A stretch of 64,000 nucleotides of DNA from Escherichia coli (GTDB lineage Bacteria; Pseudomonadota; Gammaproteobacteria; Enterobacterales; Enterobacteriaceae), in the NCBI RefSeq assembly GCF_003991155.1, contig NZ_CP031293.1. One strand, written 5' to 3'. Position 1 is the stretch's first letter. Each line of letters begins with the position of its first letter. This document shows, one piece after another, positions 5,767 through 57,121 of this stretch. Under the pieces are notes generated by a model. The model was not told the DNA's origin, ran no database searches, and saw nothing but the letters and a program-made list of their open reading frames with translations. Both the position numbers and the translations under genes were made by a program.

Positions 5767-5801
5767 TACTGGGGGGTAGTATCAGGTACTGGGGGGGAGT
5801 A
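5767..5801. promoter_or_regulatory. RcnR operator: two TACT-G6/7-N-AGTA sites in the rcnR-rcnA intergenic region
   Basis: tactggggggtagta (5767-5781) and tactgggggggagta (5787-5801), matching the known G-tract operator architecture. Confidence 0.75.
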
Positions 5802-5838
5802 GAATCAGATTGCCGAATTAATACTAAGAATTATTATC

Positions 5839-6648
<810 letters not shown>

Positions 6649-6866
6649 CTCAATCCTTTAGGCTTGCATGTTATCTTCAGCCCAGGATGATTCTTAAATC
6701 AGCTATTTCCGCTGACTCTCTGCTCGCTAAGGATGCTTTTAGGGCATCCTTTCATTTACACTTTTTACGAAATCATGGGATCACTAACAAAATATCGCTT
6801 GTCAGTTATATTGTATGGCAGGAAAGATATGCGACTGATATTACAGATCCCCAAAGTGGAGAGTTT

Positions 6867-7205
6867 ATGACCATTAAAAATAAGATGTTGCTGGGTGCGC
6901 TTTTGCTGGTTACCAGTGCCGCCTGGGCCGCACCAGCCACCGCGGGTTCGACCAATACCTCGGGAATTTCTAAGTATGAGTTAAGCAGTTTCATTGCTGA
7001 CTTTAAGCATTTCAAACCAGGTGACACCGTACCAGAAATGTACCGTACCGATGAGTACAACATTAAGCAGTGGCAGTTACGTAACCTGCCCGCGCCTGAT
7101 GCCGGGACGCACTGGACCTATATGGGTGGCGCGTACGTGTTGATCAGCGACACCGACGGTAAAATCATTAAAGCCTACGACGGTGAGATTTTTTATCATC
7201 GCTAA
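6867..7205 (+). CDS. rcnB: Periplasmic Ni/Co homeostasis protein RcnB
   Basis: Start trimmed to MTIKNKMLLGALLLVTSAAWA (signal peptide), 112 aa; the longer ORF-track start is an upstream extension. Confidence 0.9.
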   Translation: MTIKNKMLLGALLLVTSAAWAAPATAGSTNTSGISKYELSSFIADFKHFKPGDTVPEMYRTDEYNIKQWQLRNLPAPDAGTHWTYMGGAYVLISDTDGKIIKAYDGEIFYHR

Positions 7206-7210
7206 AAAAA

Positions 7211-7231
7211 GCCCCCTCGGAGAGAGGGGGA
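7211..7231. terminator. GC hairpin between convergent rcnB and yehA
   Basis: ccccctc / gaggggg stem with ggaga loop; the A-run at 7204-7210 is a U-run for the minus-strand yehA transcript. Confidence 0.6.
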
Positions 7232-7286
7232 AATGCAAACACCTTGTTATTTTTTATTATTAGCCACTTGCTCGTCTTGCTTATTA

Positions 7287-8321: not shown

Positions 8322-8336
8322 AGAACCACCTGACTA

Positions 8337-10817: not shown

Positions 10818-10832
10818 AGGCAGCTCCTGCAA

Positions 10833-11507
10833 TTAAATTTTGTCACTAATATAGTTGCCATGGTCATCGATAATGGTCAGATGCCAGTTATTCGCATTAT
10901 TACTTTTGACATTAATACTCTGACTTTCTAAGGGGGCAATCATAATAGTTTCATAATTGACTTTGACATTATTAGCTTTGACATCCGAAATCGTCACCCA
11001 ATTTGCTGAGTCATTTTTTATCACCAATCCATTGCCACTGCGATTTACCCGTAACTTTTTAAATGTCGCTTTATTTACCGGTGCAATACCCGCAGGCCGG
11101 TAAAACAATTTGATTCTGTTTTGCATTGCAAATTTCAGTGCATTCTTGCCCTCTTGCTCTGGACTATTTGGTGGAATATCCAGAACATTCAGATAAAAAA
11201 TGCTCTCTTTATTAGTGGGCAGTTTATTCGGCATAATTTTGATTTTTACTTGCTGCCCGGAATTTGCCCCTATTTTTGCCACTGGTGGCGTTAACATGAA
11301 AGGAACCTGAATTTTTTCTGGTGGTAACGACGTATCACCATCATCAATCCACGCCTGCAGCAGCGAAGAACGGTTTCCCTGATTCATCAACTGCACCATC
11401 ACTTCTTTATTTTCTGCCGGGTAAATAATACGCGTCCCGTAGATAACAATACCGGCATGTGCAGGAAGGACCATAGAAGAAATGAGTAAAGCAAATAATC
11501 CTTTCAT
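10833..11507 (-). CDS. yehC: Periplasmic fimbrial chaperone YehC
   Basis: 224 aa with signal peptide; PapD-like chaperone between major subunit and usher genes. Confidence 0.9.
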   Translation of the reverse strand: MKGLFALLISSMVLPAHAGIVIYGTRIIYPAENKEVMVQLMNQGNRSSLLQAWIDDGDTSLPPEKIQVPFMLTPPVAKIGANSGQQVKIKIMPNKLPTNKESIFYLNVLDIPPNSPEQEGKNALKFAMQNRIKLFYRPAGIAPVNKATFKKLRVNRSGNGLVIKNDSANWVTISDVKANNVKVNYETIMIAPLESQSINVKSNNANNWHLTIIDDHGNYISDKI

Positions 11508-11520
11508 CTTAATGCCTCTT

Positions 11521-11551
11521 AAATTAAAAGGCCGCCATGGGGATAGCGGCC
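11521..11551 (-). terminator. Intra-operon hairpin between yehD and yehC (attenuator)
   Basis: ggccgc / gcggcc stem at 11530-11551 followed on the minus strand by a T-rich run. Confidence 0.45.
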
Positions 11552-11587
11552 ATGTTTATTACCTGGAGAAACTTGAAATTTTATTTA

Positions 11588-12130
11588 TTAATCCTGCGCC
11601 ACACGCATAACCAGAGAAGATAACACATCACCTGATTGCACTGAATTATCTGTCAGCTTCAGGTATTTTGCTTTAAACGGAATAGCATATTGACCTTCCG
11701 CTGTTTTATAACTCTCAATGTTAAAAGGTGCAGAAACATCCAGGACATCGCTGTTATCACCTAAATAGAGATAGTACCCCACGGTATCGTTGCTACTGGC
11801 TATCGCCTTATCGTTTCCGGTTATTTTATCGTTGGTAATCAACGAGAGTTTTACACCAGCAACTTCTTTCGGACAGCTAATTTTTAACATGCTGCTGGTT
11901 ACACCGACTGCATCATCATAGGTCGAGTATTTAGCTTTACCTTCAAAGACAGTGGTTGGTACAGTTGGCATATTAATACTTACTGAATCGCCACCCGCTT
12001 CGAATTTACACGGAGATTCTGCAATATTCCCTTTAATGGTTAATGTTCCGGTATCAACGTCTGCGGCAAATACCCCAGCGCTCATAAAAAAAGAAGAAAA
12101 GACAGCGGCAGCAATAATTGAACGTTTCAT
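11588..12130 (-). CDS. yehD: Major fimbrial subunit YehD
   Basis: 180 aa, signal peptide; first gene of the operon, downstream of an AT-rich region. Confidence 0.9.
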   Translation of the reverse strand: MKRSIIAAAVFSSFFMSAGVFAADVDTGTLTIKGNIAESPCKFEAGGDSVSINMPTVPTTVFEGKAKYSTYDDAVGVTSSMLKISCPKEVAGVKLSLITNDKITGNDKAIASSNDTVGYYLYLGDNSDVLDVSAPFNIESYKTAEGQYAIPFKAKYLKLTDNSVQSGDVLSSLVMRVAQD

Positions 12131-16384: not shown

Positions 16385-19300
16385 ATGAGACACTTTATCT
16401 ATCAGGACAAAAAATCACATAAATTCTGGGCGGTGGAGCAGCAAGGCAACGAGTTACATATCAGTTGGGGCAAAGTCGGCACTAACGGGCAAAACCAGGT
16501 AAAAAGCTTTGCTGATGCTGCGGCAGCGGCAAAAGCGGAGCTTAAGCTGATCGCGGAGAAAACGAAAAAAGGCTATGTGGAAAATGCTTCAGCAAACGTG
16601 CATATCCCCCCCATCACCAAAGCCACTCCTGAAGTTAAAACTCCCCCTGTGAGTCAAAATAAACACCCATGGCTGGCTGATGATGCAGTCATTCCTGTCA
16701 CTGACGATATTAATCGATTTGCTTTTCCACATCGCTCTCGCCCCAGAGAGATCAATTATCTGCACAAAGATGGTCAAATATGGCAGCGCATTGCGAATAA
16801 CACCAGGGCATATGACCCCGACAATAATTACCGCTCTTATCCTGAAAACTGGCAGCAAGCGTTTGCCGAGTTACAAAGTCGAATTCTGGACAATCAACAA
16901 ACAGGGAGTGCGCAATCTGATGCGGCATTGCTCTGGAGTTTTTGGAACTCTTACTCTGCAGATGAACTGGTCGATGACTTAGTCATTCGCTGTGGTCTGG
17001 AAAGTGCCGTTGAAATCGCCCTTTTTGCTCTTCAACTCAAATATAAACCAGTAAAAGGCGCAGTCACCACCATCATTCCACCTGGTCACAAAGCAGAATC
17101 GCTACCGAGTTGGCATCAACGTCTATGTCATCATCTTTCACTCGCTTCAGAAGATGAGTGGCAACGCTGTGTGAATAAAGTGCTTACTGCTATTCCGACG
17201 CTATCCCCAGCACGGCAACCTTTTGCGGCGTTACTGCTCCCTGAACGCCCGGATATTGCCAATGCTATGGCTCTACGTTACGCAGACCAAAACGTTCCGG
17301 CGATGACCTGGTTAAGACTGGTAGTAACCGATGATGCCGCTCTGACTGCAGCAGAAAAATACGACTTCCCACCGTTATATCGTGATTTTCGCGCTTATCT
17401 GGCAATGTTGCTGGCAAATAATGGGGTGAGCGGTGTAAGCCGGATACTTACTGAGTTTGTGGAAGAGCATTCTGACAATCCCACTTATCTCTTCGAGCGC
17501 ATCAGCGAGACTGAAGATCTTGTCAAATGGTTATGGAAAACGAATCACCCGGATGCGATTCAAATTCTGATCCTCGGTGTAATTGGCAAGAAAAAGCACC
17601 TGGAATACTTAAGCAAAGCCTGTCAAAAACATCCCGCTGCGGCTATTGCCGCTTATGCAACTTTGCTGGCAATACATGAAGATGCACAGTGGCGCAACGC
17701 GCTTGTCAAACTGGTTACCGTCACGCCAGAGTTGGTATGTGACGTCATTCCCTGGGTTAATGCTAAAGCGGCAGGCATCTTATCTGAATGTCGTCCGCAG
17801 CCAGTAGCTGAAGAATGTGAATATGCCACTGTGGATATGTTGCCGGAGCTGTTTGTTTCGCCGCCCTGGATGACCAAAGAGAAAAAGAAAAATACGCCTG
17901 TGTTTGATCTTCCAGTGCTTCCAGTTCCTTCTGTTTCTGATGTCACTCCCGAGATTGCCAAAAGACTAACCCGTACTTACCTTGTCACCCGCTTCCAGCA
18001 AATAGCCCAACAGCAGGCGACAAAACAAACATTGTTTACCGACCTGCCGCCGATAAAAAAAGCAAGCTGGGAGAAACACTTAATACCGCTTACACCGGAG
18101 CAACAAATACTGTGGCATCTTGGTTTTGAAAAATGGCGGGAAAGCGGAGAAAAAATCTACGAAAAAATTCCGGCGCCACAAAGCGCCGTTGATGCCCTGC
18201 TACGCTTCGATTTTCCAGCACTCAATGCTGAATTTGTGCAATACCATAACAATGCATACAAAAGCTGGAATCTCATTGCCCTCTGTTACCTGCCTGGTCA
18301 ACAGGCCATTTCTTTTCTTAACCAGATAGTCAAAGAAGATAACTACTCTGATGAGGGAAATATTCTGGCAATTTTTGGTAGCGCCGCCATACCTGCATTT
18401 ATGACCTGCCTGCAACGTGATCCACGACGTCTGTGCTTCTTCCCCTTTTTCCTCGGTGTCAGTGACCTGGCCTTACCGATGGCGCAACAATTACAGAAAA
18501 AAATGTCTTATGACGATGCGCGAAACTGGCTGACTGATTACCCGCGCCATGCCGCCGCCGGACTGCTTCCTGTAGCACTGGGTAAACACTGCCAAAATCG
18601 GGAATATGCCCGCCAGGCGCTCCGCCTGCTGGTGAATTTAAACCAACGAGAAACGATTGAGGAAATCGCCCGGGGGTATAACCAACCAGATGTTTTAGCT
18701 GCGCTGGCAACATTGTTCGATAGCGACCCACTGGAAGAATATCCTGCAAAAATCGCCCCATTGCCCGGCTTTTATCAGTTCACCTTATGGCGCAGACCAC
18801 GGCTTAAAAGTAACAATCTGCCTCTGTCCGATGACGCTATGCGCCACCTGGGCACTATGTTGAGCTTCCCTCGCGACATTACCGCCTACGCTGGACTGGA
18901 TATCATTAGAGAAATCTTCACCCGGGAATCACTGGCTGACTTTGGCTGGGATCTCTACACGGCATGGATGGAATCTGGCGCGCCCGCAAAAGAAAACTGG
19001 GCATTTACCTCGCTGGGGATTTTAGGCAATAACGACACCGCGCGTAAACTAACCCCGCTTATCCGGGCCTGGCCGGGTGAATCCCAGCATAAACGCGCGG
19101 TTTCTGGGCTCGATGTGTTAGCCAGTATCGGTAGCGATATTGCGCTGATGCTGCTTAATGGCATTGCACAAAAAATTAAATTCAAAGCATTGCAGGAACA
19201 TGCCCGCGACAAAATCAATATGGTCGCCGAAAATCGCGGATTGACAATGGCCGAACTGGAAGACCGCCTGGCTCCAGATTTAGGGCTTGATATCAACGGC

Positions 19301-20185
19301 TCGCTGATACTTGATTTCGGCCCACGTCAATTCACCGTTGGTTTTGACGAAACCTTAAAACCTGTAGTGCGCGATGCAAACGGCAAGGTCCTGAAAGATT
19401 TACCCAAACCAAATCAGAGCGATGATAAAACACTGGCAACTGACGCCGTTAACCTCTTTAAACAATTGAAGAAAGATGTTCGTGCTATCGCCAGCCAGCA
19501 AATTACCCGTCTGGAACAGGCTATGTGCCAGCGCAGACGCTGGACGACAGAGCAGTTCCGCCTGTTCATGGTGGAGCACCCACTGGTACGTCACTTAACC
19601 CGACGACTGTTATGGGGGGTATATACTGAGGAAAACACGCTGATTGCCTGCTTCCGGGTCGCAGAAGACAGCACTTACAGCGATATGCAGGATGAGCTAT
19701 TCACGCTACCAGCAGGAAACATCGGTATTCCGCATATGCTGGAAATCCCCCCTGAATCTGCCGCTGCATTCAGGCAAATTTACGCTGATTACGAACTGCT
19801 CCCCCCCTTCCAACAGCTCGATCGTGGTAGTTATCGTCTTGCTGATAATGAACGGAATACCCACGAACTGACACGCTGGAGCGGACGCCTTTGCCAGGCA
19901 GGGCGCATTGTCGGGCTAGAGCGCCGAGGTTGGCAACGTCTGGAAGAAAGCGGCAGCGTCTATGCGATGCGCAAATCTACTCCTTATGGCGATCTCGAAC
20001 TTGAAACAGAACATTTTTCATTAATTTATGGCGAAACAGGTTATGGCGACCTGTTACCTGTTGAAAGCGTAAAAATCACCTCGCCAGATGATCGCTACGG
20101 TAAACAACCTTTACTTACTTTTTCCATGCTCGACGACATCACCGCCAGCGAGCTGATTAACGACATTGAATCATTGTTTGATTAA
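16385..20185 (+). CDS. molR: Large MolR-like protein, paralog 1 (N-terminal WGR-like domain, long C-terminal region)
   Basis: 1266 aa. N-terminus HKFWAVEQQGNELHISWGKVGTNGQ fits the WGR pattern; C-terminal half shares long near-identical segments with the next gene. Symbol assignment is tentative. Confidence 0.75.
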   Translation: MRHFIYQDKKSHKFWAVEQQGNELHISWGKVGTNGQNQVKSFADAAAAAKAELKLIAEKTKKGYVENASANVHIPPITKATPEVKTPPVSQNKHPWLADDAVIPVTDDINRFAFPHRSRPREINYLHKDGQIWQRIANNTRAYDPDNNYRSYPENWQQAFAELQSRILDNQQTGSAQSDAALLWSFWNSYSADELVDDLVIRCGLESAVEIALFALQLKYKPVKGAVTTIIPPGHKAESLPSWHQRLCHHLSLASEDEWQRCVNKVLTAIPTLSPARQPFAALLLPERPDIANAMALRYADQNVPAMTWLRLVVTDDAALTAAEKYDFPPLYRDFRAYLAMLLANNGVSGVSRILTEFVEEHSDNPTYLFERISETEDLVKWLWKTNHPDAIQILILGVIGKKKHLEYLSKACQKHPAAAIAAYATLLAIHEDAQWRNALVKLVTVTPELVCDVIPWVNAKAAGILSECRPQPVAEECEYATVDMLPELFVSPPWMTKEKKKNTPVFDLPVLPVPSVSDVTPEIAKRLTRTYLVTRFQQIAQQQATKQTLFTDLPPIKKASWEKHLIPLTPEQQILWHLGFEKWRESGEKIYEKIPAPQSAVDALLRFDFPALNAEFVQYHNNAYKSWNLIALCYLPGQQAISFLNQIVKEDNYSDEGNILAIFGSAAIPAFMTCLQRDPRRLCFFPFFLGVSDLALPMAQQLQKKMSYDDARNWLTDYPRHAAAGLLPVALGKHCQNREYARQALRLLVNLNQRETIEEIARGYNQPDVLAALATLFDSDPLEEYPAKIAPLPGFYQFTLWRRPRLKSNNLPLSDDAMRHLGTMLSFPRDITAYAGLDIIREIFTRESLADFGWDLYTAWMESGAPAKENWAFTSLGILGNNDTARKLTPLIRAWPGESQHKRAVSGLDVLASIGSDIALMLLNGIAQKIKFKALQEHARDKINMVAENRGLTMAELEDRLAPDLGLDINGSLILDFGPRQFTVGFDETLKPVVRDANGKVLKDLPKPNQSDDKTLATDAVNLFKQLKKDVRAIASQQITRLEQAMCQRRRWTTEQFRLFMVEHPLVRHLTRRLLWGVYTEENTLIACFRVAEDSTYSDMQDELFTLPAGNIGIPHMLEIPPESAAAFRQIYADYELLPPFQQLDRGSYRLADNERNTHELTRWSGRLCQAGRIVGLERRGWQRLEESGSVYAMRKSTPYGDLELETEHFSLIYGETGYGDLLPVESVKITSPDDRYGKQPLLTFSMLDDITASELINDIESLFD

Positions 20186-20197
20186 AAGGATTTAGCA

Positions 20198-23100
20198 ATG
20201 AAAACCTATATTTATCAGGACGAAAAATCACATAAATTCTGGGCAGTGGAGCAACAGGGAAACGAGCTGCATATTAGTTGGGGCAAAGTCAGTACCAACG
20301 GGCAAAGCCAGGTAAAAAGCTTTGCTGATGCTGCGGCGGCGGAAAAAGCGGAACTGAGGCTGATTGCGGAGAAGATGAAGAAGGGGTATGTGGAGCAAGC
20401 GAAGGATAATTCTTTGCAACCTTCCCAAACGGTAACGGATTCTCTCAAGGTAGCGGCCTTATCCACCATTATTCAGGAACAACCCTTTTGCGTAGCAGAA
20501 GCCCGTGTGGCTGACAAAAATACAGATGATGTTTTACCGTGGCTGGCGAAAGATATTGCTGTCGTTTTTCCGCCCGAAGTTGTACACACCACGTTAAGCC
20601 ATCGCCGCTTTCCCGGAGTTCCTGTTCAGCAAGCAGACAACTTGACCCAGTTACGTCGCTTAGCCTGTAGCGTGTCGCAACGGGATAATAAAACAGCCAC
20701 ATTTGACTTCAGCGCCTGTTCTTTAGTATGGCAAAACACCGTCGCCCAGGCGATCAGTCAGATCGACTGCCTGAAAACAACACAGTTACCATCACCAGTA
20801 ATGGCTGTACTCACGGCACTTGAAATGAAATGCACAAGATATAAAGTGCGTGAGGATGTTATGGATCAGATCATTCAGGAAGGCGGTCTGGAATATGCTA
20901 CTGATGTAATAATACACCTTCAACAGATTGATATTGAATGGAATTATGCGAATAATATCATTATTATTCTGCCGTCTGGCATTGCACCTGATAACTTGCA
21001 GCAATATTCCAGTTTTGAATTACGCCTACGGAAACATTTATCACTGGCGGAAGAGTCTCTCTGGCAAAAATGTGCACAAAAACTTATTGCCGCAATTCCA
21101 CATATTCCAGAATGGCGGCAACCATTAATTGCTTTGTTATTACCCGAAAAACCAGAAATTGCACATGAAATTGCCCAGCGTCTACTGGGGAAAAAAAAAT
21201 TACCCTCGCTTGAGTGGCTAAAAATAGTGGCGACTGATGAGCACATTCTTGCCTCATTAGAAAAATATCACGAGCCATATGCCATTTTTGATGATTACTA
21301 TTGTGGTGCGATATGGTCAGCCACCGTATTACAGGAGCAAGGTGTTGCAGCCCTGCCCCGATTTGCTCCCTATGCCGCAAGTGACTACTGCGCCGATGTG
21401 TTGCGTCATATCAATCATCCGTTCGCATTAACACTGCTTATACGTGTAGCCGGGCATACTAAACGCTGTCACGATCGAATGACGAAAGCCTGCGCTGCGT
21501 TCCCACACGCAGCACTGGCAGCACTGGCGGAACTTCTAGTGCAAAAAGAAGAGAATAGTTGGCGCATTATGCTAATGACGATGCTTATCTCGCAACCAGC
21601 ACTGGCAGAACAGGTCATTCCCTGGCTTTCGACACCCGCAGCTGCAGTGCTGAAATCATGCCAGCAACAACTGACACAGCCATCAAACCATGCCAGCACC
21701 GATCTACTGCCGGCCATAGTAGTCTCCCCACCATGGCTTTCGAAAAAGAAAAAATCGTCGATTCCGGTGCTTGATTTAGCACCATTAGGCATTGAGCCAA
21801 TCAGTTATCTGACAGAAGAAATCAGTAATCAACTTTTGGCGAAATATATCTGGTATTCAAAACACATCACGGTTAGTCATGAAGAAAGTACTGCCAATCT
21901 GTTGGCAAGGATGGGTTTTCAACGACGGATCGCTGGTACATATATTAAAGCTCCCGAAGCGGTAGTTGAGGCATGGCTAAATGAAGATTATTCAACCTTA
22001 ATAAGTGAATTTAAGGTGTTTCATTCACCTACCGGGCATTATTGGCATTTGGGGATTTTGACAACATTGCCGCTGGAGAAAGCAATAAGAGCATGGAATG
22101 CCCTTACTCTATCTCCGCATACCGATACCGAATACGCCATGTTACATTTTGGACTCAAAGGATTACCTGGGTTAGTAAACTCACTTGCACGTTATCCACA
22201 GGAAGCCTTGCCCATAACGAATTACTTCGCAGCGAGTGAGCTGGCTCCTGCCGTCGCCCGCGCCTTCAACAAACTCAAAACCCTACGACAAGACGCCCGC
22301 ACCTGGCTGCTGAAATACCCGGAACACGCCATTACCGGCCTGCTACCTTCGGCGCTCGGCAAAGCCGGTGAAGCACAGGATAACGCCCGCGCTGCCTTGC
22401 GTATGCTTATCGAAAACGATCATCAGCCATTACTGCAAGAAATCGCCCGGCGTTATAACCAGCCGGAAGTAACAGATGCGGTGAACGCTATGCTTGCGCT
22501 CGATCCCTTAGATAATCACCCGACAAAAATCCCCACTCTTCCGGCCTTTTATCAGCCATCGATCTGGACCCGCCCGGTATTAAAAGCAAATGCCCAATCA
22601 CTGCCAGATAACGCCCTCCTCCACCTCGGTGAAATGCTCCGCTTCCCTCAGGAAGAGGCTCTGTATCCGGGATTATTGCAGGTGAAAGATGCCTGTACCG
22701 CCGACTCACTGGCTGAATTTGCCTGGGATCTGTTTACCGCCTGGCAGACCGCTGGCGCACCGTCGAAAGAAAGTTGGGCGTTCACTGCGTTAGGCGTTCT
22801 CGGTAACGATGACACCGCCCGCAAACTGACGCCATTAATCCGCGCCTGGCCTGGCGAATCTCAGCATAAACGTGCCACCGTTGGGTTGGATATTCTCGCT
22901 GCTATCGGCAGCGATATCGCCCTGATGCAGCTTAACGGCATCGCCCAGAAACTGAAATTCAAAGCATTACAGGAGCGAGCAAAAGAAAAAATTGCCGACA
23001 TTGCCGAAAGCCGCGAACTCACAGTGGCAGAACTTGAAGATCGGTTAGCACCGGATCTCGGTCTGGATGATAACGGTTCGCTGCTGCTGGATTTCGGGCC

Positions 23101-23992
23101 ACGGCAGTTCACCGTCAGCTTTGATGAAACCTTAAAACCGTTTGTGCGTGATGCTTCCGGCAGCCGCCTGAAAGACTTGCCTAAACCGAACAAAAGCGAT
23201 GATGAAACCCAAGCGAACGATGCAGTTAACCGCTACAAACTGTTGAAAAAAGATGCGCGTACCGTTGCCGCCCAGCAGGTAGCAAGGCTGGAATCCGCCA
23301 TGTGCCTACGCCGCCGCTGGTCGCCGGAAAACTTCCAGCTATTCCTGGTTGAGCATCCGCTGGTTCGCCACTTAACCCGCCGTCTGATTTGGGGCGTTTA
23401 TAGCACCGAAAACGAGCTACTGGCCTGTTTCCGGGTGGCAGAAGATAACAGCTACAGCACCGCTGACGATGATCTTTTCACCCTGCCGGAAGGCGATATC
23501 TCTATTGGTATTCCTCACGTTCTGGAAATATCACCGACGGATGCCGCCGCCTTTGGTCAGCTTTTTGCCGACTACGAACTTTTACCGCCGTTCCGTCAGC
23601 TCGACCGCAACAGTTATGCCCTGACTGAAGTCGAACGCAACGCCAGCGAACTAACCCGCTGGGCAGGCAGAAAATGCCCGAGCGGTCGGGTTATGGGGCT
23701 GTCGAATAAAGGCTGGGTGCGTGGTGAACCGCAGGACGGTGGCTGGATCGGCTGGATGATCAAACCTCTGGGCCGCTGGTCATTAATCATGGAAATCGAT
23801 GAAGGATTTGCAGTTGGTATGTCGCCAGCCGAACTCAGTGCCGAGCAACTCTTAAGCAAGCTGTGGCTATGGGAAGGCAAAGCAGAAAGCTATGGCTGGG
23901 GGAGTCATTCAACACAGGAAGCGCAGTTCTCCGCACTCGATGACATCACCGCCAGCGAGTTGATTAACGATATTGAAGCCCTGTTTGAATAA
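20198..23992 (+). CDS. Large MolR-like protein, paralog 2 (N-terminal WGR-like domain)
   Basis: 1264 aa; same N-terminal and C-terminal sequence blocks as paralog 1, separated from it by only 12 bp. Confidence 0.75.
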   Translation: MKTYIYQDEKSHKFWAVEQQGNELHISWGKVSTNGQSQVKSFADAAAAEKAELRLIAEKMKKGYVEQAKDNSLQPSQTVTDSLKVAALSTIIQEQPFCVAEARVADKNTDDVLPWLAKDIAVVFPPEVVHTTLSHRRFPGVPVQQADNLTQLRRLACSVSQRDNKTATFDFSACSLVWQNTVAQAISQIDCLKTTQLPSPVMAVLTALEMKCTRYKVREDVMDQIIQEGGLEYATDVIIHLQQIDIEWNYANNIIIILPSGIAPDNLQQYSSFELRLRKHLSLAEESLWQKCAQKLIAAIPHIPEWRQPLIALLLPEKPEIAHEIAQRLLGKKKLPSLEWLKIVATDEHILASLEKYHEPYAIFDDYYCGAIWSATVLQEQGVAALPRFAPYAASDYCADVLRHINHPFALTLLIRVAGHTKRCHDRMTKACAAFPHAALAALAELLVQKEENSWRIMLMTMLISQPALAEQVIPWLSTPAAAVLKSCQQQLTQPSNHASTDLLPAIVVSPPWLSKKKKSSIPVLDLAPLGIEPISYLTEEISNQLLAKYIWYSKHITVSHEESTANLLARMGFQRRIAGTYIKAPEAVVEAWLNEDYSTLISEFKVFHSPTGHYWHLGILTTLPLEKAIRAWNALTLSPHTDTEYAMLHFGLKGLPGLVNSLARYPQEALPITNYFAASELAPAVARAFNKLKTLRQDARTWLLKYPEHAITGLLPSALGKAGEAQDNARAALRMLIENDHQPLLQEIARRYNQPEVTDAVNAMLALDPLDNHPTKIPTLPAFYQPSIWTRPVLKANAQSLPDNALLHLGEMLRFPQEEALYPGLLQVKDACTADSLAEFAWDLFTAWQTAGAPSKESWAFTALGVLGNDDTARKLTPLIRAWPGESQHKRATVGLDILAAIGSDIALMQLNGIAQKLKFKALQERAKEKIADIAESRELTVAELEDRLAPDLGLDDNGSLLLDFGPRQFTVSFDETLKPFVRDASGSRLKDLPKPNKSDDETQANDAVNRYKLLKKDARTVAAQQVARLESAMCLRRRWSPENFQLFLVEHPLVRHLTRRLIWGVYSTENELLACFRVAEDNSYSTADDDLFTLPEGDISIGIPHVLEISPTDAAAFGQLFADYELLPPFRQLDRNSYALTEVERNASELTRWAGRKCPSGRVMGLSNKGWVRGEPQDGGWIGWMIKPLGRWSLIMEIDEGFAVGMSPAELSAEQLLSKLWLWEGKAESYGWGSHSTQEAQFSALDDITASELINDIEALFE

Positions 23993-24001
23993 GGAAAGAA
24001 C

Positions 24002-27000
24002 ATGGACAAGGAATTACCGTGGCTGGCGGATAACGCCCAACTGGAACTGAAATATAAAAAAGGCAAAACACCACTCAGCCATCGCAATTGGCCGGGAGAA
24101 CCGGTGCCTGTTATCACTGAAAGCCTCATCCAGACACTGGGTGATAAATTGCTACACATTGCTGAGAAGAAAAAAAACATTGTCTGGCGTTATGAAAATT
24201 TTTCACTGGAATGGCAGTCCGCCATCACGCAGGCCATCAACTTGATCGGCGAGCACAAACCCTCAGTTCCGGCCCGGACAATGGCGGCGCTAGCCTGTAT
24301 CGCGCAAAATGACAGCCAACAGTTGCTCGACGAAATCGTCCAACAAGAGGGACTGGAATATGCGACTGAGGTGGTGATTGCACGCCAGTTTATTGCACAG
24401 TGTTATGAGAGTGATCCTCTGCTAGTGACATTGCAGTATCAGAACGAGGATTATGGCTATGGTTATCGCTCAGAAACCTATAACGAATTCGATCTCCGAC
24501 TGCGTAAGCATCTCTCTCTGGCAGAGGAAAGCTGCTGGCAGCGTTGCGCCGACAAACTCATTGCCGCACTGCCAGGACTACCCCAAGTTCGCCGTCCTTT
24601 TATTGCGCTGATCCTCCCGGAAAAACCAGAAATCGCCAATGAGTTGGTAGGCCTTGAATGCCCGTGGACTCATTTTCATTCTAAGGAGTGGTTAAAAGTT
24701 GTTGCTACTGACCACAGGGCAGTGGGAAAACTCGAACGCTACTGGAGCCAGGATATATTTAGCGATCGCGAAGCCAGCTACATGTCGCATGAAAACCACT
24801 TCGGCTACGCGGCCTGCGCCGCCCTTTTGCGCGAACAAGGAATTGCAGCCGTTCCACGCCTCGCGATGTATGCCCATAAAGAAGATTGCGGCAGTCTGCT
24901 GGTACAAATTAACCATCCGCAGGTCATCCGTACCCTGCTGTTAGTTGCTGATAAAAATAAACCCAGCCTGCAACGTGTGGCTAAATACAGTAAAAACTTC
25001 CCCCATGCGACGCTTGCCGCACTGGCAGAGCTTCTGGCGTTAAAAGAACCGCCTGCACGCCCTGGTTATCCAATCATCGAAGACAAAAAGCTGCCTGCAC
25101 AGCAAAAAGCTCGAGATGAATACTGGCGTACGCTGTTACAAACGCTGATGGCATCGCAGCCACAACTGGCAGAAGAGGTGATGCCGTGGTTAAGTACTCA
25201 AGCCCAGGCAGTGCTGAATAGTTATTTATCGGCACCGCCCAAAACGGTTATTGATAGCACCGATAACATCCAAATGCCTGAAATCCTCGTTTCACCACCG
25301 TGGCGTAGTAAGAAAAAAATGACAGTTCCACGTCTTGATTTGGCACCGTTCGAATTAACGCCGCAAGTTTACTGGCAACCAGGCGAACGAGAGAGGCTTG
25401 CCGCCACTGAGTCTGCCCGTTATTTCAGCACGGAATCTCTTGCGGAACGCATGGAACAAAAAAGTGGACGAGTTGTATTACAGGAGCTGGGTTTTGGAGA
25501 TGATGTATGGCTGTTTTTGAATTATATACTCCCCGGAAAACTGGATGCTGCACGCAATTCACTCATTGTTCAGTGGCATTACTACCCAGGGCGGGTTGAA
25601 GAGATCATGAATGGCTGGAGCTCCCCGGAAGCTCAATTAGCAGAACAGGCGCTTCGCAACGGTCACGTAGAAGTGTTAATTAACATATGGGAAAATGACA
25701 GCTACTCACGCTATCGTCGGGAAAAGAGTATCTGGAACCTGTATTTATTGGCGCAGTTGCCGCGTGAGATGGCTTTGACTTTCTGGCTACGTATCAATGA
25801 GAAAAAGCATCTGTCTGCGGGTGAGGACTATTTTCTCAGTATCTTCGGATTGGATGCTCTACCAGGTCTGCTGTTGGCTTTTTCACATCGTCCAAAAGAA
25901 ACATTTCCATTAATTTTAAATTTCGGCGCAACAGAACTGGCCCTGCCCGTTGCCCGCGTCTGGCGACGTTTCGCGGCGCAGCGTGATCTGGCTCGCCAGT
26001 GGATTTTACATTGGCCGGAACATACAGCTACTGCACTTATCCCTCTTGTCTTCACCAAATCCAGCGATAATAGCGAAGCTGCATTACTTGCCCTGCGTTT
26101 ACTTTACGAACAGGGACATGGCGAATTACTGCAAACCGTGGCAAACCGCTGGCAGCATACAGATGTATGGCCTGCCCTGGAGCAATTACTTAAACAGGGT
26201 CCAATGGACATTTACCCGGCACGCATTCCCAAAGCCCCTGATTTCTGGCATCCGACAATGTGGTCCAGACCGAGACTTATCACGAATAATCAGCCTGTTA
26301 CCGATGATGCTCTGGAAATTATCGGCGACATGCTGCGCTTTACCCAGGGCGGACGTTTTTATTGCGGGCTGGAACAACTGAAAACGTTCTGCCAGCCACA
26401 AACGCTGGCAGCTTTTGCCTGGGATCTCTTCACCGCGTGGCAACAAGTTGGCGCCCCCGCAAAAGACAACTGGGCATTTCTGGCGTTAAGTCTCTTCGGT
26501 GACGAAAGCACGGCTCGGGATCTGACAACACAGATCCTCGCCTGGCCACAGGAAGGCAAATCTGCCCGTGCCGTCAGTGGCCTGAACATACTTACTCAGA
26601 TGAATAATGATATGGCGCTGATACAGCTGCATCATATATCGCAACGGGCGAAATCCCGCCCCTTACGTGATAACGCGGCGGAATTTCTTCAGGTGGTCGC
26701 AGAAAATCGTAGGCTAAGCCAGGAACAGTTAGCGGACAGATTAGTCCCAACACTGGGTCTTGATGATCCGCAGGCGTTGAGTTTTGATTTTGGTCCACGG
26801 CAATTTACCGTTCGCTTTGATGAAAACCTTAACCCGGTTATCTTTGATCAGCAAAACGTTCGCCAGAAAAGCGTTCCCCGGTTGCGCGCCGATGACGATC
26901 AACTGAAAGCGCCCGAGGCACTGGCCCGACTAAAAGGGCTAAAAAAAGATGCGACTCAGGTGAGCAAAAACCTGCTCCCGCGTCTTGAAACGGCCCTACG

Positions 27001-27634
27001 CACCACCCGACGCTGGTCGCTGGCAGATTTTCATACTCTGTTTGTTAATCATCCCTTTACCCGCCTGGTTACTCAGCGATTAATATGGGGCGTGTATCCG
27101 GCAAATGAACCGCGTCGTTTACTCAACGCCTTTCGTGTGGCCGCAGAGGGGGAGTTCTGCAATGCACAAGATGAGCCCATTGACCTGCCTGCGGATGCTT
27201 TGATTGGCATTGCCCACCCGTTAGAAATGACAGCAGAAATGCGCAGTGAATTTGCACAGCTTTTTGCCGATTACGAAATTATGCCGCCTTTTCGCCAGTT
27301 GACGAGGCGCACAGTGCTGCTCACGCCTGACGAGTCAGCCAGTAACAGCCTGACTCGCTGGGAAGGTAAATCCGCTACCGTTGGGCAACTTATGGGAATG
27401 CGATACAAAGGCTGGGAGTCAGGCTATGAGGACGCATTTGTCTATGACCTGGGCGAGTACCGGCTGGTCCTTAAGTTTTCATCCGGTTTTAACCACTACA
27501 ATGTTGATAGCAAAGCGCTAATGAGCTTCCGTTCTCTTCATGTATACCGTGACAATAAATCTGTCACTTTTGCCGAACTTGATGTGTTTGATTTGAGTGA
27601 AGCGTTAAGCGCACCCGACGTCATTTTCCATTAA
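24002..27634 (+). CDS. yehI: Large YehI protein (shares the C-terminal region of the two upstream paralogs, lacks the WGR-like N-terminus)
   Basis: 1210 aa; shared blocks such as DLFTAWQ..GAPAKDNWAF and FGPRQFTV; 9 bp downstream of paralog 2. Confidence 0.85.
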   Translation: MDKELPWLADNAQLELKYKKGKTPLSHRNWPGEPVPVITESLIQTLGDKLLHIAEKKKNIVWRYENFSLEWQSAITQAINLIGEHKPSVPARTMAALACIAQNDSQQLLDEIVQQEGLEYATEVVIARQFIAQCYESDPLLVTLQYQNEDYGYGYRSETYNEFDLRLRKHLSLAEESCWQRCADKLIAALPGLPQVRRPFIALILPEKPEIANELVGLECPWTHFHSKEWLKVVATDHRAVGKLERYWSQDIFSDREASYMSHENHFGYAACAALLREQGIAAVPRLAMYAHKEDCGSLLVQINHPQVIRTLLLVADKNKPSLQRVAKYSKNFPHATLAALAELLALKEPPARPGYPIIEDKKLPAQQKARDEYWRTLLQTLMASQPQLAEEVMPWLSTQAQAVLNSYLSAPPKTVIDSTDNIQMPEILVSPPWRSKKKMTVPRLDLAPFELTPQVYWQPGERERLAATESARYFSTESLAERMEQKSGRVVLQELGFGDDVWLFLNYILPGKLDAARNSLIVQWHYYPGRVEEIMNGWSSPEAQLAEQALRNGHVEVLINIWENDSYSRYRREKSIWNLYLLAQLPREMALTFWLRINEKKHLSAGEDYFLSIFGLDALPGLLLAFSHRPKETFPLILNFGATELALPVARVWRRFAAQRDLARQWILHWPEHTATALIPLVFTKSSDNSEAALLALRLLYEQGHGELLQTVANRWQHTDVWPALEQLLKQGPMDIYPARIPKAPDFWHPTMWSRPRLITNNQPVTDDALEIIGDMLRFTQGGRFYCGLEQLKTFCQPQTLAAFAWDLFTAWQQVGAPAKDNWAFLALSLFGDESTARDLTTQILAWPQEGKSARAVSGLNILTQMNNDMALIQLHHISQRAKSRPLRDNAAEFLQVVAENRRLSQEQLADRLVPTLGLDDPQALSFDFGPRQFTVRFDENLNPVIFDQQNVRQKSVPRLRADDDQLKAPEALARLKGLKKDATQVSKNLLPRLETALRTTRRWSLADFHTLFVNHPFTRLVTQRLIWGVYPANEPRRLLNAFRVAAEGEFCNAQDEPIDLPADALIGIAHPLEMTAEMRSEFAQLFADYEIMPPFRQLTRRTVLLTPDESASNSLTRWEGKSATVGQLMGMRYKGWESGYEDAFVYDLGEYRLVLKFSSGFNHYNVDSKALMSFRSLHVYRDNKSVTFAELDVFDLSEALSAPDVIFH

Positions 27635-50425: not shown

Positions 50426-50506
50426 CCCTGGATAAGGTGTTCGCGCCGCATCCGACATCCGGTGCACCATGCCTGATGCGACGCTGGCGTGTCTTATCTG
50501 GCCTAA
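50426..50506. repeat. Pair of REP elements in opposite orientation (BIME-like)
   Basis: ggataaggtgttcgcgccgcatccgacatccggtgc and gcctgatgcgacgctggcgtgtcttatctggcctaa. Confidence 0.75.
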
Positions 50507-50536
50507 CCCAATGAAATAACCACGCACCTCACTGCG

Positions 50537-51298
50537 CTATTCTGGGTTGAACTGCGGATTCGCCAACATAAAGCCGCCATCCACTATCAACGACCGCCCG
50601 GTGGTGTAATTTGCGCCCTCCGAACAAAGCCATACCACCAGACTGGCAATCTCATGCGTTGTGCCAAAACGTCGCAAGGGAATCGAAGGCTCCGCGTCGG
50701 GCTTCACATCGCCGTCATCCATGCCGTTCATTGGCGTGGCGATCGCCCCAGGTGCGACTGCGTTCACCAAAATTTTATGCCTGACCAGCTCCAGCGCCAT
50801 TGCTTTGGTTAACCCGCCGAGCGCATGTTTAGCGGCTGTGTAGGCGCTGGCATCCGGCAGCGGCGTATGTTCATGTACCGATGTAATGTTGATGATGCGA
50901 CCGCCCTGCCCTTGCTTCACCATCTGGCGGGCAGCAATTTGCGAGCATAAAAATGCACCATCGACATCAACGGTAAAAATCTTGCGCCACTCATCGAAAG
51001 CCATATCAAGAAACGGCGCTTTGGTCATTGCGCCCGCATTATTCACCAGCACATCAATACGCCCCAGCCGATGAATAAGTTTCTCCAGCGCCAGTGCCCC
51101 TTCTGGTAGATTGCCGAGATCCAGTTGCACGATCTCCGCACGTACGCCGTGGCTAACTACCTCACGCGCGGTATCTTTTGCCCCTTCTTCATCTGAGTGC
51201 CAGGTAATGCCAATATCAAACCCCTGCTGCGCCAGTAATAACGCGCACTCTTTGCCGATCCCCGAATCGGAGGCGGTAATTATCGCGACCTGTGCCAT
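50537..51298 (-). CDS. yohF: Short-chain dehydrogenase/reductase YohF
   Basis: Start trimmed to MAQVAIITASDSGIGK (Rossmann TGxxxGxG-like), 253 aa. Confidence 0.9.
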   Translation of the reverse strand: MAQVAIITASDSGIGKECALLLAQQGFDIGITWHSDEEGAKDTAREVVSHGVRAEIVQLDLGNLPEGALALEKLIHRLGRIDVLVNNAGAMTKAPFLDMAFDEWRKIFTVDVDGAFLCSQIAARQMVKQGQGGRIINITSVHEHTPLPDASAYTAAKHALGGLTKAMALELVRHKILVNAVAPGAIATPMNGMDDGDVKPDAEPSIPLRRFGTTHEIASLVVWLCSEGANYTTGRSLIVDGGFMLANPQFNPE

Positions 51299-51350
51299 CG
51301 AGTTCTCCACTTAACGCTGAATAAATGTTAAGTATAGAAGGCGCATATCA

Positions 51351-52787
51351 TCAGCGTTTGTAACCTCCGCCCAGCGCACCGGTGAGTTGAATGGAGGCAT
51401 CCAGCCACTGCCCTTGCAATAACAGGCCATTGGCCCGCTCACGCAGCGCGGGGATTCTGGCTTCGCTGACGCGGGAACCAGCAATGATGCCCGCGTTAAA
51501 GCGCGCCTGCGCAAGACCTACCACACGCAAGGCATCGTGCTCAATTTGCGCCTGATGCTGGTTTTTCTCCGCCAGTGTCTGAACCTGGCTGGCCGCCCGC
51601 GCCACGTCATTTACCGCTTCAACCACCGCTTTGTTGTAGCTGGCGATAGACAAGTTGCTTTCGGCTTTTGCGATATCGAGATTGGCGTTAAGACGACCAC
51701 TATCGAAAATGGGTAGCGTCAGGCCTGCCGTAACGCCCATTTGCTGCGCGGAATGACGGAACAGATCGCTTAAGTGCAACGCATCCTGTTGCAGAAAGGC
51801 CATCAGGTTGATGTCAGGATAAAATGCCGCTTTTGCCGCATCAATAGTGCTTAACGATGACTCAACGTACCAGTGCGCCGCCTGCAAATCTGCCCGCCGG
51901 GCCAGTAAGGAGTACCCGAGTTCATCAGGAAGCTGACTTGCCACTTTCGGCAACGCGACCGGTTTAAGCTTCAATGACTTTGTCTGGTGGTTGGTGAGCG
52001 CACTTAACCGTGCCTCAATAATTTTCATTTTCCCCGCGACATCGTTGAGCTGCTGCCGGGTTTTGCTGGCATTAATATCGGTTTCCACACCTTCAACTGA
52101 AGAAGTAATCCCGTTCTGATATAGCTGGCGATCGGTCGCGATAATGGTGTTCTGCTCTTTTTCGATTTGCTGCAAGACCGTGTTTAACGCCGCCTGGGTT
52201 TGCCACTCCCAGTACAGGCGGGCTACGCTGCCAGCCAGCAATTGGCAGGTTTGCTCGCGTTCCGCCGCCCGTGCTTTAACCGTACCGAGGCGAGCAGTAA
52301 CCTCCGCCCGATTCTTTCCCCAGATATCGAGATGCCAGCCCGCCGTTAAGCCAAAAGTACCGTTGGTGTACCACGGACCGGTCGTACCTGCGGCAGGATC
52401 GTTCAGAGCAAACGGCCCCATTAACCCTTCTGCAGACATTTTTTGCCGCTCCATATCCGCAGAAAAGTCGATCTGCGGACCATCCTGAGTGGCAACTGCC
52501 TTCGCCTGGGCTTCAGCCAGCTGAATGCGCTGTTCAGCCACCTGCATATCCGGTGCGTTCTGTAGTGCATTGTTAATTAATGAAGTGAGTTGATTATCGT
52601 GATACTCCAGCCACCATTGGCTGTCTGGCCAACCATTTTTCAGCGCCGTGGGTAATGCGGTGTCAACTTGTGCCGCGGGTGTTTGCTGGCTTAACGCCTG
52701 GCGGGTTTCATGCATAGGCGCACACCCGGCCAGCATCAGTAACAGCGGAAAACAGGCGATGGCTGGATAAAAAGAATCACGATTCAT
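51351..52787 (-). CDS. mdtQ: Outer-membrane efflux lipoprotein MdtQ (YohG), apparently intact
   Basis: Start trimmed to MNRDSFYPAIACFPLLLMLAGC (lipobox), 478 aa with no internal stop. Confidence 0.85.
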   Translation of the reverse strand: MNRDSFYPAIACFPLLLMLAGCAPMHETRQALSQQTPAAQVDTALPTALKNGWPDSQWWLEYHDNQLTSLINNALQNAPDMQVAEQRIQLAEAQAKAVATQDGPQIDFSADMERQKMSAEGLMGPFALNDPAAGTTGPWYTNGTFGLTAGWHLDIWGKNRAEVTARLGTVKARAAEREQTCQLLAGSVARLYWEWQTQAALNTVLQQIEKEQNTIIATDRQLYQNGITSSVEGVETDINASKTRQQLNDVAGKMKIIEARLSALTNHQTKSLKLKPVALPKVASQLPDELGYSLLARRADLQAAHWYVESSLSTIDAAKAAFYPDINLMAFLQQDALHLSDLFRHSAQQMGVTAGLTLPIFDSGRLNANLDIAKAESNLSIASYNKAVVEAVNDVARAASQVQTLAEKNQHQAQIEHDALRVVGLAQARFNAGIIAGSRVSEARIPALRERANGLLLQGQWLDASIQLTGALGGGYKR

Positions 52788-53010
52788 GGGGGAATAATCA
52801 GGTAAGAAAAGGTGCGCGGAGATTACCGTGTGTTGCGATATATTTTTTAGTTTCGCGTGGCAATACATCAGTAGCAATAAAACGACATATCCAGAAAAAT
52901 ATACACTAAGTGAATGATATCTTCCGATTTATCTTAATCGTTTATGGATAACGGCAAAGGGCTTCGTTTTTTCCTATACTTATTCAGCACTCACAAATAA
53001 AGGAACGCCA

Positions 53011-53094
53011 ATGAAAATTATACTCTGGGCTGTATTGATTATTTTCCTGATTGGGCTACTGGTGGTGACTGGCGTATTTAAGATGATATTTTAA
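53011..53094 (+). CDS. yohP: Small membrane protein YohP (27 aa)
   Basis: Found by eye: MKIILWAVLIIFLIGLLVVTGVFKMIF with AAGGAA upstream. Confidence 0.8.
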   Translation: MKIILWAVLIIFLIGLLVVTGVFKMIF

Positions 53095-54560
53095 AATTAA
53101 TTAATGTCATCAGGTCCGAAAATAACGAGAATAGTTCAGTCTCTCATCCTGTTGCGCTCCTGTCATGTGCATTGCTTCATATCATCACTGGCGCAAGGAG
53201 CGCGCAGGGGGCGGCCAGTCGCCGTCGCCCCCTGCACCCCCGGGCTCTGGCGAACAAAATCGCCGCTGCGCGGTACCCTCGGCTTATCCCTTGCTGCTAC
53301 CGGGTCGGGCGCGAGGTAACATATATGGACGCTCCCGGAATGCAATGCTTTCTTCAGTTATGTAATAAAACGGGTAGGTGCAGCCATATATCCGGTTTCT
53401 GATGGGATTTTTATCCCGAACCATGATGAAATCCGCCAGGCAGGTACCAATCATCCTCTACGGGCTAACTTGCCCTTGTTACCTCTCGGTGTATCCTGCC
53501 TGCGGTCTTACCTGTTTTGCCATCTTCTGAAGTCACCTGCACCTCCCAGGACGTTAACTTTTTTTCAGCACCTCGTCAGATTGACTGACCTTGTGTCAGG
53601 CGAGCTGCCGAGGTTGATATTCAGTATTGTGTGACAACATTGACCACATGATCCTCGCTGTTTTTGCCGCCATGGCGACAACAGCTACATTGTAGTGCTT
53701 CCGCTCAAGGAGTCCCTGAAGCCAGGAATTCTCCTCAACCGCGCCGTTTCGGTTGACCCAGGCGGTAAGTGCGCGTGCGCCGTGAACCAGCAGGTATCGG
53801 AAATATCCATCTCCACGTTTGCTGATCCCTCCCAGTTGCTGTTTCCCGCCGCTGGAATGTTCCTTTGGTGTCAGCCCCAGCCATGAAGCGAACTGCTTTG
53901 CGGTACTGAATTGTCGGGCATTACCCACTGCTGCTACCACATAAGTGGCCGTTAGCATGCCAACCCCCGGGATCTTGGCCATTCTCTGGCAGGCTTCCTG
54001 CGTTCTATACCAGGAGGCCAGAGCTTCTTCTACCTGTTTAACTTGTTCTTCAAGTTCCCGGATATGTTTAGACTGTCTGTAGATGCTGGTTCTGACAAAG
54101 GGAGATAAACCATTTTCGCCATCCTCCAGAATGGCTGGCAGCTCACGTGTTAAATGGCTTTGTCCGGCCGCAATCGTAATACCAAACTCAGCAAGTGTGG
54201 CTCTTAAACTATTGGCACAGGCAATCCGCTCACGGATAAGTATTCCCCGTTCAGTGTGTAACGCTAAAACGGCCTGCTGCTCTTCGGTTTTTATCTGAAC
54301 AAAACGCATATTCGGACGGGTTACCGCTTCGCAGATTGCTTCAGCATCTGCTGCATCCGTCTTGTTCGTTTTCACATAAGGCTTCACATACTGCGGAGGT
54401 ATGAGTTTTACCTCATGACCATAGCGGGTGAATAATCGCGCAAAATAATGACTGGATGAGCAGGCTTCCATGCCAATCAGACAAGGTTCCAGTTGAATCA
54501 CAAACTGAACAAACTTAGCCCGGGTGAGCTTTTTACGCAAAATAGTATGGCCTTCATGAT

Positions 54561-55810
<1,250 letters not shown>

Positions 55811-56221
55811 CCACTACAGATCGACACCATGAAGCTGAAAAACGTTCTTTGCCAGGTCGATACCAAGAGTTGATACTTTCATGTGGACGCTCCTAATTTT
55901 TCAGGACGTATTGCAACGATCCAGTCTGGTACTTTGATACCGTAAAATCTGGAGCGTCCATCTCATTATCCCTGTAAAACGCGCCCTCAGCCCACATCCA
56001 TGTGGGCTGCCCCGCCCTTCAGGGAACGCCTCGGCGATTTTGACGCCACCAACACCGGTGCGGTTTGTAATTAAAGCGCAAGAACATCTTTAAATGAAAA
56101 CGAATACTCTACTGCTCCTTATGCATAACATTTCCTTTTAATTGCAACTTTACTCGTCCTTCCGCTTTCAGTAGTGTGTCATCGCGCATTTCGACTTCAT
56201 CTTTGCAAGGACTGGGTTTTC

Positions 56222-57121
56222 ATGTTTTCTGGGCTGTTAATCATTCTGGTTCCCCTGATTGTGGGTTACCTCATTCCGCTTCGCCAAAAAGCTGCATTAA
56301 GAGTTATTAATCAGCTATTAAGCTGGATGGTTTACCTTATTCTCTTTTTTATGGGTATCAGTCTGGCGTTTCTCGATAACCTCGCCAGTAACCTGTTGGC
56401 GATTCTGCATTATTCTGCTGTCAGTATTACCGTTATTTTACTGTGTAATATTGCCGCCCTGATGTGGCTGGAGCGCGGCCTGCCATGGCGCAACCACCAT
56501 CATCAAGAAAAACTCCCGTCGCGTATTGCGATGGCGCTGGAGTCGCTAAAACTGTGCGGCGTAGTAGTGATTGGTTTTGCCATTGGCCTGAGTGGACTGG
56601 CTTTCTTACAACATGCGACCGAAGCCAGTGAATACACCTTAATTCTGCTACTTTTCCTCGTCGGTATTCAGTTGCGCAATAATGGCATGACCTTAAAGCA
56701 GATTGTCCTTAATCGCCGGGGAATGATTGTCGCCGTGGTGGTGGTTGCCAGTTCATTAATTGGTGGTTTAATTAACGCCTTTATTCTTGATCTTCCCATC
56801 AATACCGCGCTGGCAATGGCCTCCGGTTTCGGCTGGTATTCTCTTTCCGGTATTTTATTGACCGAATCTTTTGGTCCGGTAATCGGGAGCGCGGCGTTTT
56901 TTAATGATCTGGCCCGTGAGCTGATTGCTATTATGTTGATCCCTGGGCTGATTCGCCGTAGCCGCTCGACTGCACTGGGCTTATGTGGTGCGACGTCGAT
57001 GGATTTCACCCTGCCCGTTCTTCAACGTACTGGCGGGCTGGATATGGTCCCGGCGGCGATTGTTCACGGTTTTATTCTTAGCCTGTTAGTGCCGATCCTC
57101 ATCGCCTTTTTCTCTGCATAA
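56222..57121 (+). CDS. lysO: Lysine exporter LysO (YbjE)
   Basis: Start trimmed to MFSGLLIILVPLIVGYLIPL, 299 aa, multi-pass membrane protein. Confidence 0.9.
   Translation: MFSGLLIILVPLIVGYLIPLRQKAALRVINQLLSWMVYLILFFMGISLAFLDNLASNLLAILHYSAVSITVILLCNIAALMWLERGLPWRNHHHQEKLPSRIAMALESLKLCGVVVIGFAIGLSGLAFLQHATEASEYTLILLLFLVGIQLRNNGMTLKQIVLNRRGMIVAVVVVASSLIGGLINAFILDLPINTALAMASGFGWYSLSGILLTESFGPVIGSAAFFNDLARELIAIMLIPGLIRRSRSTALGLCGATSMDFTLPVLQRTGGLDMVPAAIVHGFILSLLVPILIAFFSA

Follow-up and report, generated by a model that had tools for sequence, protein, structure and literature searches.

At positions 53011-53094 of the window, as we call the whole 64,000-nucleotide stretch of Escherichia coli DNA that was analysed, lies a reading frame of 27 codons encoding a small hydrophobic peptide. 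It has the outer-membrane efflux channel gene mdtQ on one side and two nested insertion sequences on the other, beyond which the first gene is lysO, followed by hcp, hcr and poxB (Table 1).

Table 1. Positions in the window of the genes, signals, insertion sequences and repeat parts around yohP, with the basis of each reading.
Feature	Position	Strand	Basis and remarks
mdtQ, outer-membrane efflux channel gene, 478 codons, intact	51351-52787	-	ORF, NF008524, RefSeq annotation in 2016C-3878
CTATACT, candidate -10 element of sigma-S type (TATACT preceded by C at -13)	52974-52980	+	by-eye reading
Shine-Dalgarno sequence AAGGA of yohP	53000-53004	+	read from sequence; 6-nt spacer to the ATG
yohP CDS, ATG, 27 codons, TAA	53011-53094	+	ORF list, K-12 alignment, NF011345
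Native 3' flank of yohP, 228 bp, 8 substitutions relative to K-12	53095-53322	+	alignments; left part of the repeat from ~53160
IS110-family (IS1111-type) element, 3' portion	53323-54560	-	NF033542; compared with the intact copy in 2016C-3878
IS110-family 3' non-coding region, 273 bp	53323-53595		subterminal inverted repeat ATGGACGCTCC at 53325-53335
IS110-family transposase, C-terminal 320 codons and stop	53596-54558	-	NF033542
IS3-family element, 1258 bp, nested in the IS110-family transposase gene	54561-55818	+	NF033516, inverted repeats, target site duplication, RefSeq
IS110-family element, 5' portion	55819-55969	-	start of the transposase gene (~20 codons; ATG at 55882)
~280-bp repeat, right-hand part, from the copy native to the aqpZ-lysO spacer	55970-56075	+	begins CCCTGTAAAACGCGCCC; lysO-specific sequence follows
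lysO, first gene past the junction	56222-57121	+	followed by hcp, hcr, poxB

The yohP gene and its upstream block

Translation of 53011-53094 on the plus strand gives MKIILWAVLIIFLIGLLVVTGVFKMIF, a peptide with a 21-residue hydrophobic core between Lys2 and Lys24 and with glycine residues within the helix. The 84-bp coding sequence is 100% identical at the nucleotide level to yohP of K-12 (DH5alpha), the product of which is WP_000691708.1, and RefSeq lists this ORF under that accession, as 'small membrane protein YohP', both in K-12 and in strain 2016C-3878, which is 99.9-100% identical to the window around yohP. Against the NCBIfam equivalog NF011345, likewise named 'small membrane protein YohP', the peptide scores 67.3 bits (E 7.7e-19; curated cutoff 58 bits), with residues 1-27 aligned on positions 1-27 of the 27-position model. 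The frame is yohP, a known and much-studied core gene of E. coli; the earlier note on this DNA, made from the letters and a list of open reading frames, had named it so, and the translation, the K-12 identity, the model score and the RefSeq annotation all bear this out. Of 5426 complete E. coli genomes, 5421 have a single copy of a 141-bp stretch comprising the proximal 5' region, the ribosome-binding site and the CDS, and in 5354 of these it is at least 99% identical.

The earlier note had also pointed out that yohP was missing from the list of open reading frames, and with the default cutoff of 60 aa no ORF is listed over 52880-53100; the gene was omitted because its size is below this cutoff. 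A short ORF taken alone is uninformative, because such frames are abundant by chance, with 99 ORFs of 20 aa or more overlapping the 5.5 kb from 50500 to 56000. This abundance, together with the lack of a plus-strand consensus promoter 5' of yohP in a generic sigma-70 scan, is what might be expected if the 27 codons encoded nothing and stood open between genes by chance, but the likelihood of this is practically nil. The peptide is identical over its full length to an experimentally validated protein and scores above the cutoff of an equivalog model, the ORF is nearly invariant in 5421 genomes, and the absence of a translation signal, which the earlier note had named as the observation that would speak against the gene, is not what is seen, as the Shine-Dalgarno sequence AAGGA stands correctly spaced 6 nt before the ATG. 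The idea of a non-coding frame had in fact already been refuted by the detection of chromosomally tagged YohP, with SPA in E. coli and FLAG in Salmonella.

YohP is described in the literature as a 27-residue, single-helix inner-membrane protein that dimerises. It has been shown that it is an integral protein of the inner membrane which is recognised post-translationally by SRP and inserted via SecYEG or YidC (PMC7549839), and that, when SRP is inhibited, the yohP mRNA is targeted to the membrane through its U-rich coding sequence, for which the UTRs are dispensable (PMC10066597). In MG1655, YohP that was SPA-tagged on the chromosome and made from the native promoter accumulates in stationary phase, when oxygen is limiting and in minimal medium (PMC12719787). 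Production of YohP lowers the membrane potential, increases cardiolipin, sets off the stringent response and leads to a condensed nucleoid (PMC12719787, PMC12542507); Phe23, Lys24 and the glycine positions of the peptide encoded here agree with those studied in PMC12542507.

A known counterpart is the Salmonella orthologue, which sits in a short, sRNA-sized transcript formerly called the sRNA STnc1330, and whose 3xFLAG-tagged protein is abundant and nearly absent in an rpoS mutant; the Salmonella gene depends on sigma-S, for which it has a canonical -10 region (PMC5437024). The window shares with STnc1330/YohP the orthologous small ORF and a good ribosome-binding site, and a sigma-S-type -10-like motif appears to be visible here too. 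This is the CTATACT of Table 1, which lies ~30 nt 5' of the ATG in a stretch identical to K-12, and which resembles a sigma-S -10 element, with the characteristic C at -13, and may be regarded as a candidate element. Whereas the sigma-S dependence and the transcript are known from Salmonella, the gene in the window is read from its sequence, and a search of the window against Rfam matched no family at the yohP region.

Upstream of yohP the order of genes is as in K-12 (dld, pbpG, yohC, yohD, yohF, mdtQ). MdtQ scores 1022 bits against NCBIfam NF008524 over residues 1-478 of 478, and the gene is intact in the window, whereas in K-12 DH5alpha a frameshift has made it a pseudogene. It was proposed earlier that yohP follows mdtQ, which holds for the order of coordinates and not for a same-strand order, as mdtQ lies on the minus strand and is divergent from yohP, with a spacer of 223 bp between them. 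Two observations concern more distant parts of the window. At 16385-27634 the plus strand has three long ORFs in a row, of 1266, 1264 and 1210 aa, and these may be paralogues of the K-12 yehH/yehI (molR) region; the G+C content of positions 1-12000 is 0.425-0.44, as compared with 0.49-0.54 elsewhere in the window, and this part may be horizontally acquired DNA.

The junction and its nested insertion sequences

The downstream comparison with a reference strain, which had been suggested as a check, was made with K-12 (DH5alpha), and the alignment of the yohP locus is gapless, with 1 substitution in 231 bp upstream of the gene and 8 in 228 bp downstream. Collinearity ends at 53322 (...GAGGTAACAT), 228 bp past the yohP stop, and the sequence from 53323 onwards is unrelated, so yohP is the last gene of the K-12-collinear block, and the insertion sequences stand adjacent to it, as had been described. 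K-12 YohP (WP_000691708.1; NF011345/PRK14762) and its window counterpart share the 27-aa sequence, the coding nucleotides, the ribosome-binding site, the divergent partner mdtQ, the 5' region and the first 228 bp of the 3' flank, whereas the K-12 locus continues with the convergent gene dusC and the window with the nested elements and then lysO. The view that the downstream context of yohP has been replaced is thus right for the next gene, dusC, but the first 228 bp 3' of the stop are native. On the whole the interpretation given in the earlier note is supported, with minor corrections. The synteny mdtQ-yohP-dusC is a conserved one (PMC12719787); the loss of dusC adjacency is a rearrangement of context and is not evidence against the orthology of yohP.

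The outer of the two insertion sequences is an IS110-family element (53323-55969), which is split by an IS3-family element. The C-terminal 320 residues of its transposase score 330.9 bits against NF033542 (cutoff 140), while the 5' portion, on the far side of the nested element, includes an 87-bp 5' non-coding region with the subterminal inverted repeat GGAGCGTCCAT at 55951-55961; this repeat and its partner at 53325-53335 are perfect over 11 nt. An intact copy is present at the reciprocal junction of strain 2016C-3878, described below (positions 2800-4185 of the comparison locus sequence L004), where the element is 1386 bp long and encodes a transposase of 341 aa. Its transposase gene is followed by a long non-coding region, and its inverted repeats are subterminal, both of which are characters of IS1111 elements as set out in PMC11187229, and it also shows the site- and orientation-specific insertion of that group. 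It is always inserted between GGTAACAT and CCCTGTAAAAC, and the same position (ACAT/CCCTG) is used in the repeats of both the yohP-dusC and the aqpZ-lysO spacers, and in uninverted genomes as well.

Within the 3' non-coding region of the IS110-family element, a segment at 53477-53488 could pair with the left target flank (53310-53321) at 11 of 12 positions and appears seekRNA-like, while the best match to the right flank in this region is a 7-mer, at chance level. The left-flank match is as expected of a seekRNA, and the segment may be put forward as a putative one. A known system with which the element may be compared is ISEc11 of the IS1111 group (PMC11187229), with which it shares a DEDD-type transposase, the long downstream non-coding region, the subterminal inverted repeats and a specific site and orientation of insertion. 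However, ISEc11 is 1443 bp long and its target is GTGAAAATACTG, as opposed to the 1386 bp and the GGTAACAT/CCCTGTAAAAC target here, and an identification of the element with ISEc11 was rejected because length and target differ.

The inner element has the characters of the IS3 family, with an orfA/orfB pair joined by a frameshift (54633-55810; 264 bits against NF033516), 26-nt inverted repeats TGTAGTGG...CCACTACA with TG...CA ends, and, on comparison with the intact IS110-family copy, a 3-bp target duplication, GAT, at 54558-54560 and 55819-55821. RefSeq labels its orfs 'IS3 family transposase, programmed frameshift'. The IS110-family copy of the window is dead, because its transposase gene is split by this element at 54560/54561.

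Two annotation matters arise within these elements. In 2016C-3878, RefSeq gives a CDS of 337 aa as 'IS110 family transposase' (window 53596-54609, minus strand; 6817-7830 of locus sequence L001), which is an artefactual ORF, as it begins, with a GTG and its first 16-17 codons, within the inverted repeat of the IS3-family element; the authentic N-terminus of the transposase (MKVSTLGIDLAKNVFQLHGVD) is left behind at 55822-55882. In addition, the only strong Rfam match in the window is to isrC, 'Hfq binding RNA', at 54629-54751 on the plus strand (145 bits; gathering score 39). It falls wholly inside orfA of the IS3-family element, and in this context reflects the insertion sequence and not an independent sRNA gene.

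A reciprocal inversion of 1.32 Mb

Past the junction, the genes lysO-hcp-hcr-poxB correspond to the ~0.91-Mb region of K-12 in reverse orientation. The flank to the left of the insertion sequences is specific to yohP and that to the right is specific to lysO, while one and the same repeat continues across both. The ~280-bp, GC-rich repeat begins 65 nt past the yohP stop and is split by the insertion sequences into 53160-53322 and 55970-56075; in K-12, two intact and nearly identical copies, mutually inverted, are found in the yohP-dusC and aqpZ-lysO spacers (in the comparison locus sequences, intact copies lie at ~4165-4440 of L002 and ~2335-2610 of L003).

Among the 5426 complete E. coli genomes, the left junction between yohP and the IS110-family element is present in 95, from humans, animals and water, and the reciprocal aqpZ-dusC junction is present in 85. 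In 2016C-3878 the yohP junction lies at 1.36 Mb and the reciprocal junction at 2.68 Mb. The arrangement yohP-IS-lysO is therefore one junction of a reciprocal 1.32-Mb inversion, because the aqpZ-IS-dusC junction is found 1.32 Mb away in a near-identical genome, and with about 85-95 complete genomes carrying it, SMS-3-5 among them, it is neither private to this strain nor destructive. On the K-12 map, the endpoints of the inversion (~0.91 and ~2.23 Mb) look roughly symmetric about dif (~1.59 Mb) and the terminus. At 8-kb resolution, GC skew along the window was too noisy to show whether strand bias is preserved by the inversion.

A mechanism may be proposed in three steps, the first and third of which are read from the sequence. 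The IS110-family element first inserted site-specifically into both copies of the repeat. Homologous exchange between the two inverted copies of the element would then have inverted the 1.32 Mb between them, giving yohP-IS-lysO, as in the window, and aqpZ-IS-dusC as the products. Finally, the IS3-family element entered the transposase gene of the window's copy, thereby inactivating it. Ten further genomes, e.g., CE10 (99.5% identical), have the element between yohP and dusC without the inversion, and these are the expected precursor state.

As the K-12 repeats are inverted at exactly the two endpoints, and are nearly identical over ~270 bp, they might themselves have recombined, with the insertion sequences as mere bystanders that had entered before or after the inversion, and the aqpZ-dusC junction of one genome, KFu014, which has no insertion sequence, could be seen as such a product. 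We regard this course of events as unlikely. Adjacency of yohP and lysO without an insertion sequence was found in 0 of the 5426 complete genomes, while 84 of the 85 reciprocal junctions contain the IS110-family element, KFu014 being the remaining one, whose lone junction may be explained by later loss of the element. Moreover, the 1386-bp element offers a five-fold longer homology than the repeat, and the uninverted genomes with the element at yohP-dusC exist. Recombination between copies of the IS110-family element is thus the preferred reading of the inversion.

The repeat and the expression of yohP

The position at which the IS110-family element enters the repeat falls exactly in the loop of a hairpin (GUUUUACAGGG/AUGUUACC), the second of two adjacent hairpins that the repeat can form on the strand opposite yohP. 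The first has the loop AUGGAU, which fits the pattern AYGGAY, whereas the loop of the second, AGGGAU, has G in place of Y; this second hairpin (UACAGGGAUGU) appears to resemble the CsrA-type GGA hairpin, and the pair has the look of CsrA-binding sites. On this strand the intact K-12 repeat gives a full-length match to the Rfam family TwoAYGGAY (RF01731), the RNAs of which have been proposed to bind CsrA (PMC4333381), but the score of 30.9 bits falls below the gathering score of 43. In small searches the match has an E of 0.004-0.009, and it was not reported when 20 kb were searched. The repeat and the family have in common the two adjacent hairpins, with the second hairpin of the repeat matching the CsrA-type ACAGGGAUGU hairpin. 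They differ in that the repeat falls short of the gathering score, its second loop breaks the AYGGAY rule and its outer stems are poorly paired, and the copy in the window is split besides. Membership of the repeat in TwoAYGGAY was rejected, and by the criteria of Rfam there is a resemblance only.

Beyond K-12, E. coli genomes contain up to 7-10 places that match the repeat, a few of them on plasmids. When the stretch from yohP into the insertion sequence was used as a query, about a third of the E. coli genomes gave a partial match of 80-90% only, which suggests that the yohP-dusC copy of the repeat may be absent or diverged in about a third of E. coli. When 100,044 species genomes were scanned for the pattern of paired hairpin loops, most matches were unrelated CsrA-type pairs, in Shewanella, Acinetobacter, Salinicola and others; no more than seven stretches at six loci were homologous to the repeat, and these came from E. 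coli, E. albertii, Pseudocitrobacter and a single MAG. Covariation is uninformative for the fold, because the hairpin core is invariant in eight copies from these same sources (E. coli, E. albertii, Pseudocitrobacter and the MAG). That the repeat is a new structured RNA of Escherichia and its relatives, made of two CsrA-type GGA hairpins, and at the same time the target of an RNA-guided IS1111-type element that drives the inversion, seems to us distinctly doubtful. If it were true, this lineage, with both K-12-equivalent copies split, would be a knock-out made by nature, and yohP might have a changed 3' or antisense context.

In the regulation of yohP itself, the junction is expected to make no difference, because all known determinants lie upstream of it, and the 5' region, the ribosome-binding site, the CDS and 228 bp of 3' flank are native; the expression of yohP would thus probably be unaffected. 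There are, however, several ways in which the nested elements and the inversion might alter it, through loss of the 3' end or terminator, through changed convergent or antisense transcription, or through the splitting of a structured repeat. In keeping with these, the promoter/terminator scan detected no intrinsic terminator between the yohP stop and the junction, the convergent gene is a transposase gene of the insertion sequence instead of dusC, and the repeat 65-330 nt downstream of yohP is interrupted. Folding of the transcript region of yohP gave a z score of -2.5, which is due to the GC-rich hairpins of the repeat; a reading of this fold as a terminator was rejected.

Altered expression is nevertheless very improbable in our judgement. 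The junction lies 228 bp beyond the stop and leaves the promoter region, the ribosome-binding site and the CDS unchanged, the Salmonella orthologue is a short, sRNA-sized transcript (STnc1330), and targeting of the mRNA to the membrane requires the coding sequence alone. As for convergent transcription, K-12 too has a convergent gene downstream, dusC, and the convergent transposase gene of the window is itself broken by the IS3-family element. The arrangement also persists in ~95 genomes, and 10 more have the insertion sequence at the same site with dusC retained. Taken as a whole, a known yohP gene with native signals, next to an inversion that arose by recombination between two copies of the IS110-family element and that leaves the expression of yohP unaffected, is in all probability the right account of the locus.

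The rearrangement is an ordinary inversion associated with insertion sequences and is common to many sequenced strains, and only the repeat and its site-specific insertion sequence provide a mildly novel thread. The absence of yohP from the list of reading frames is an instance of how size-thresholded ORF tracks overlook validated small-protein genes, a limitation that is already known. For E. coli, the conserved synteny of mdtQ, yohP and dusC has been broken in one lineage, in which yohP itself shows no sign of damage. While no new principle is involved, the inversion is useful for the comparative genomics of the lineages that carry it, and would be a clear case of a site-specific element of the IS110/IS1111 type that seeds a megabase inversion by way of paired insertions in an inverted repeat.
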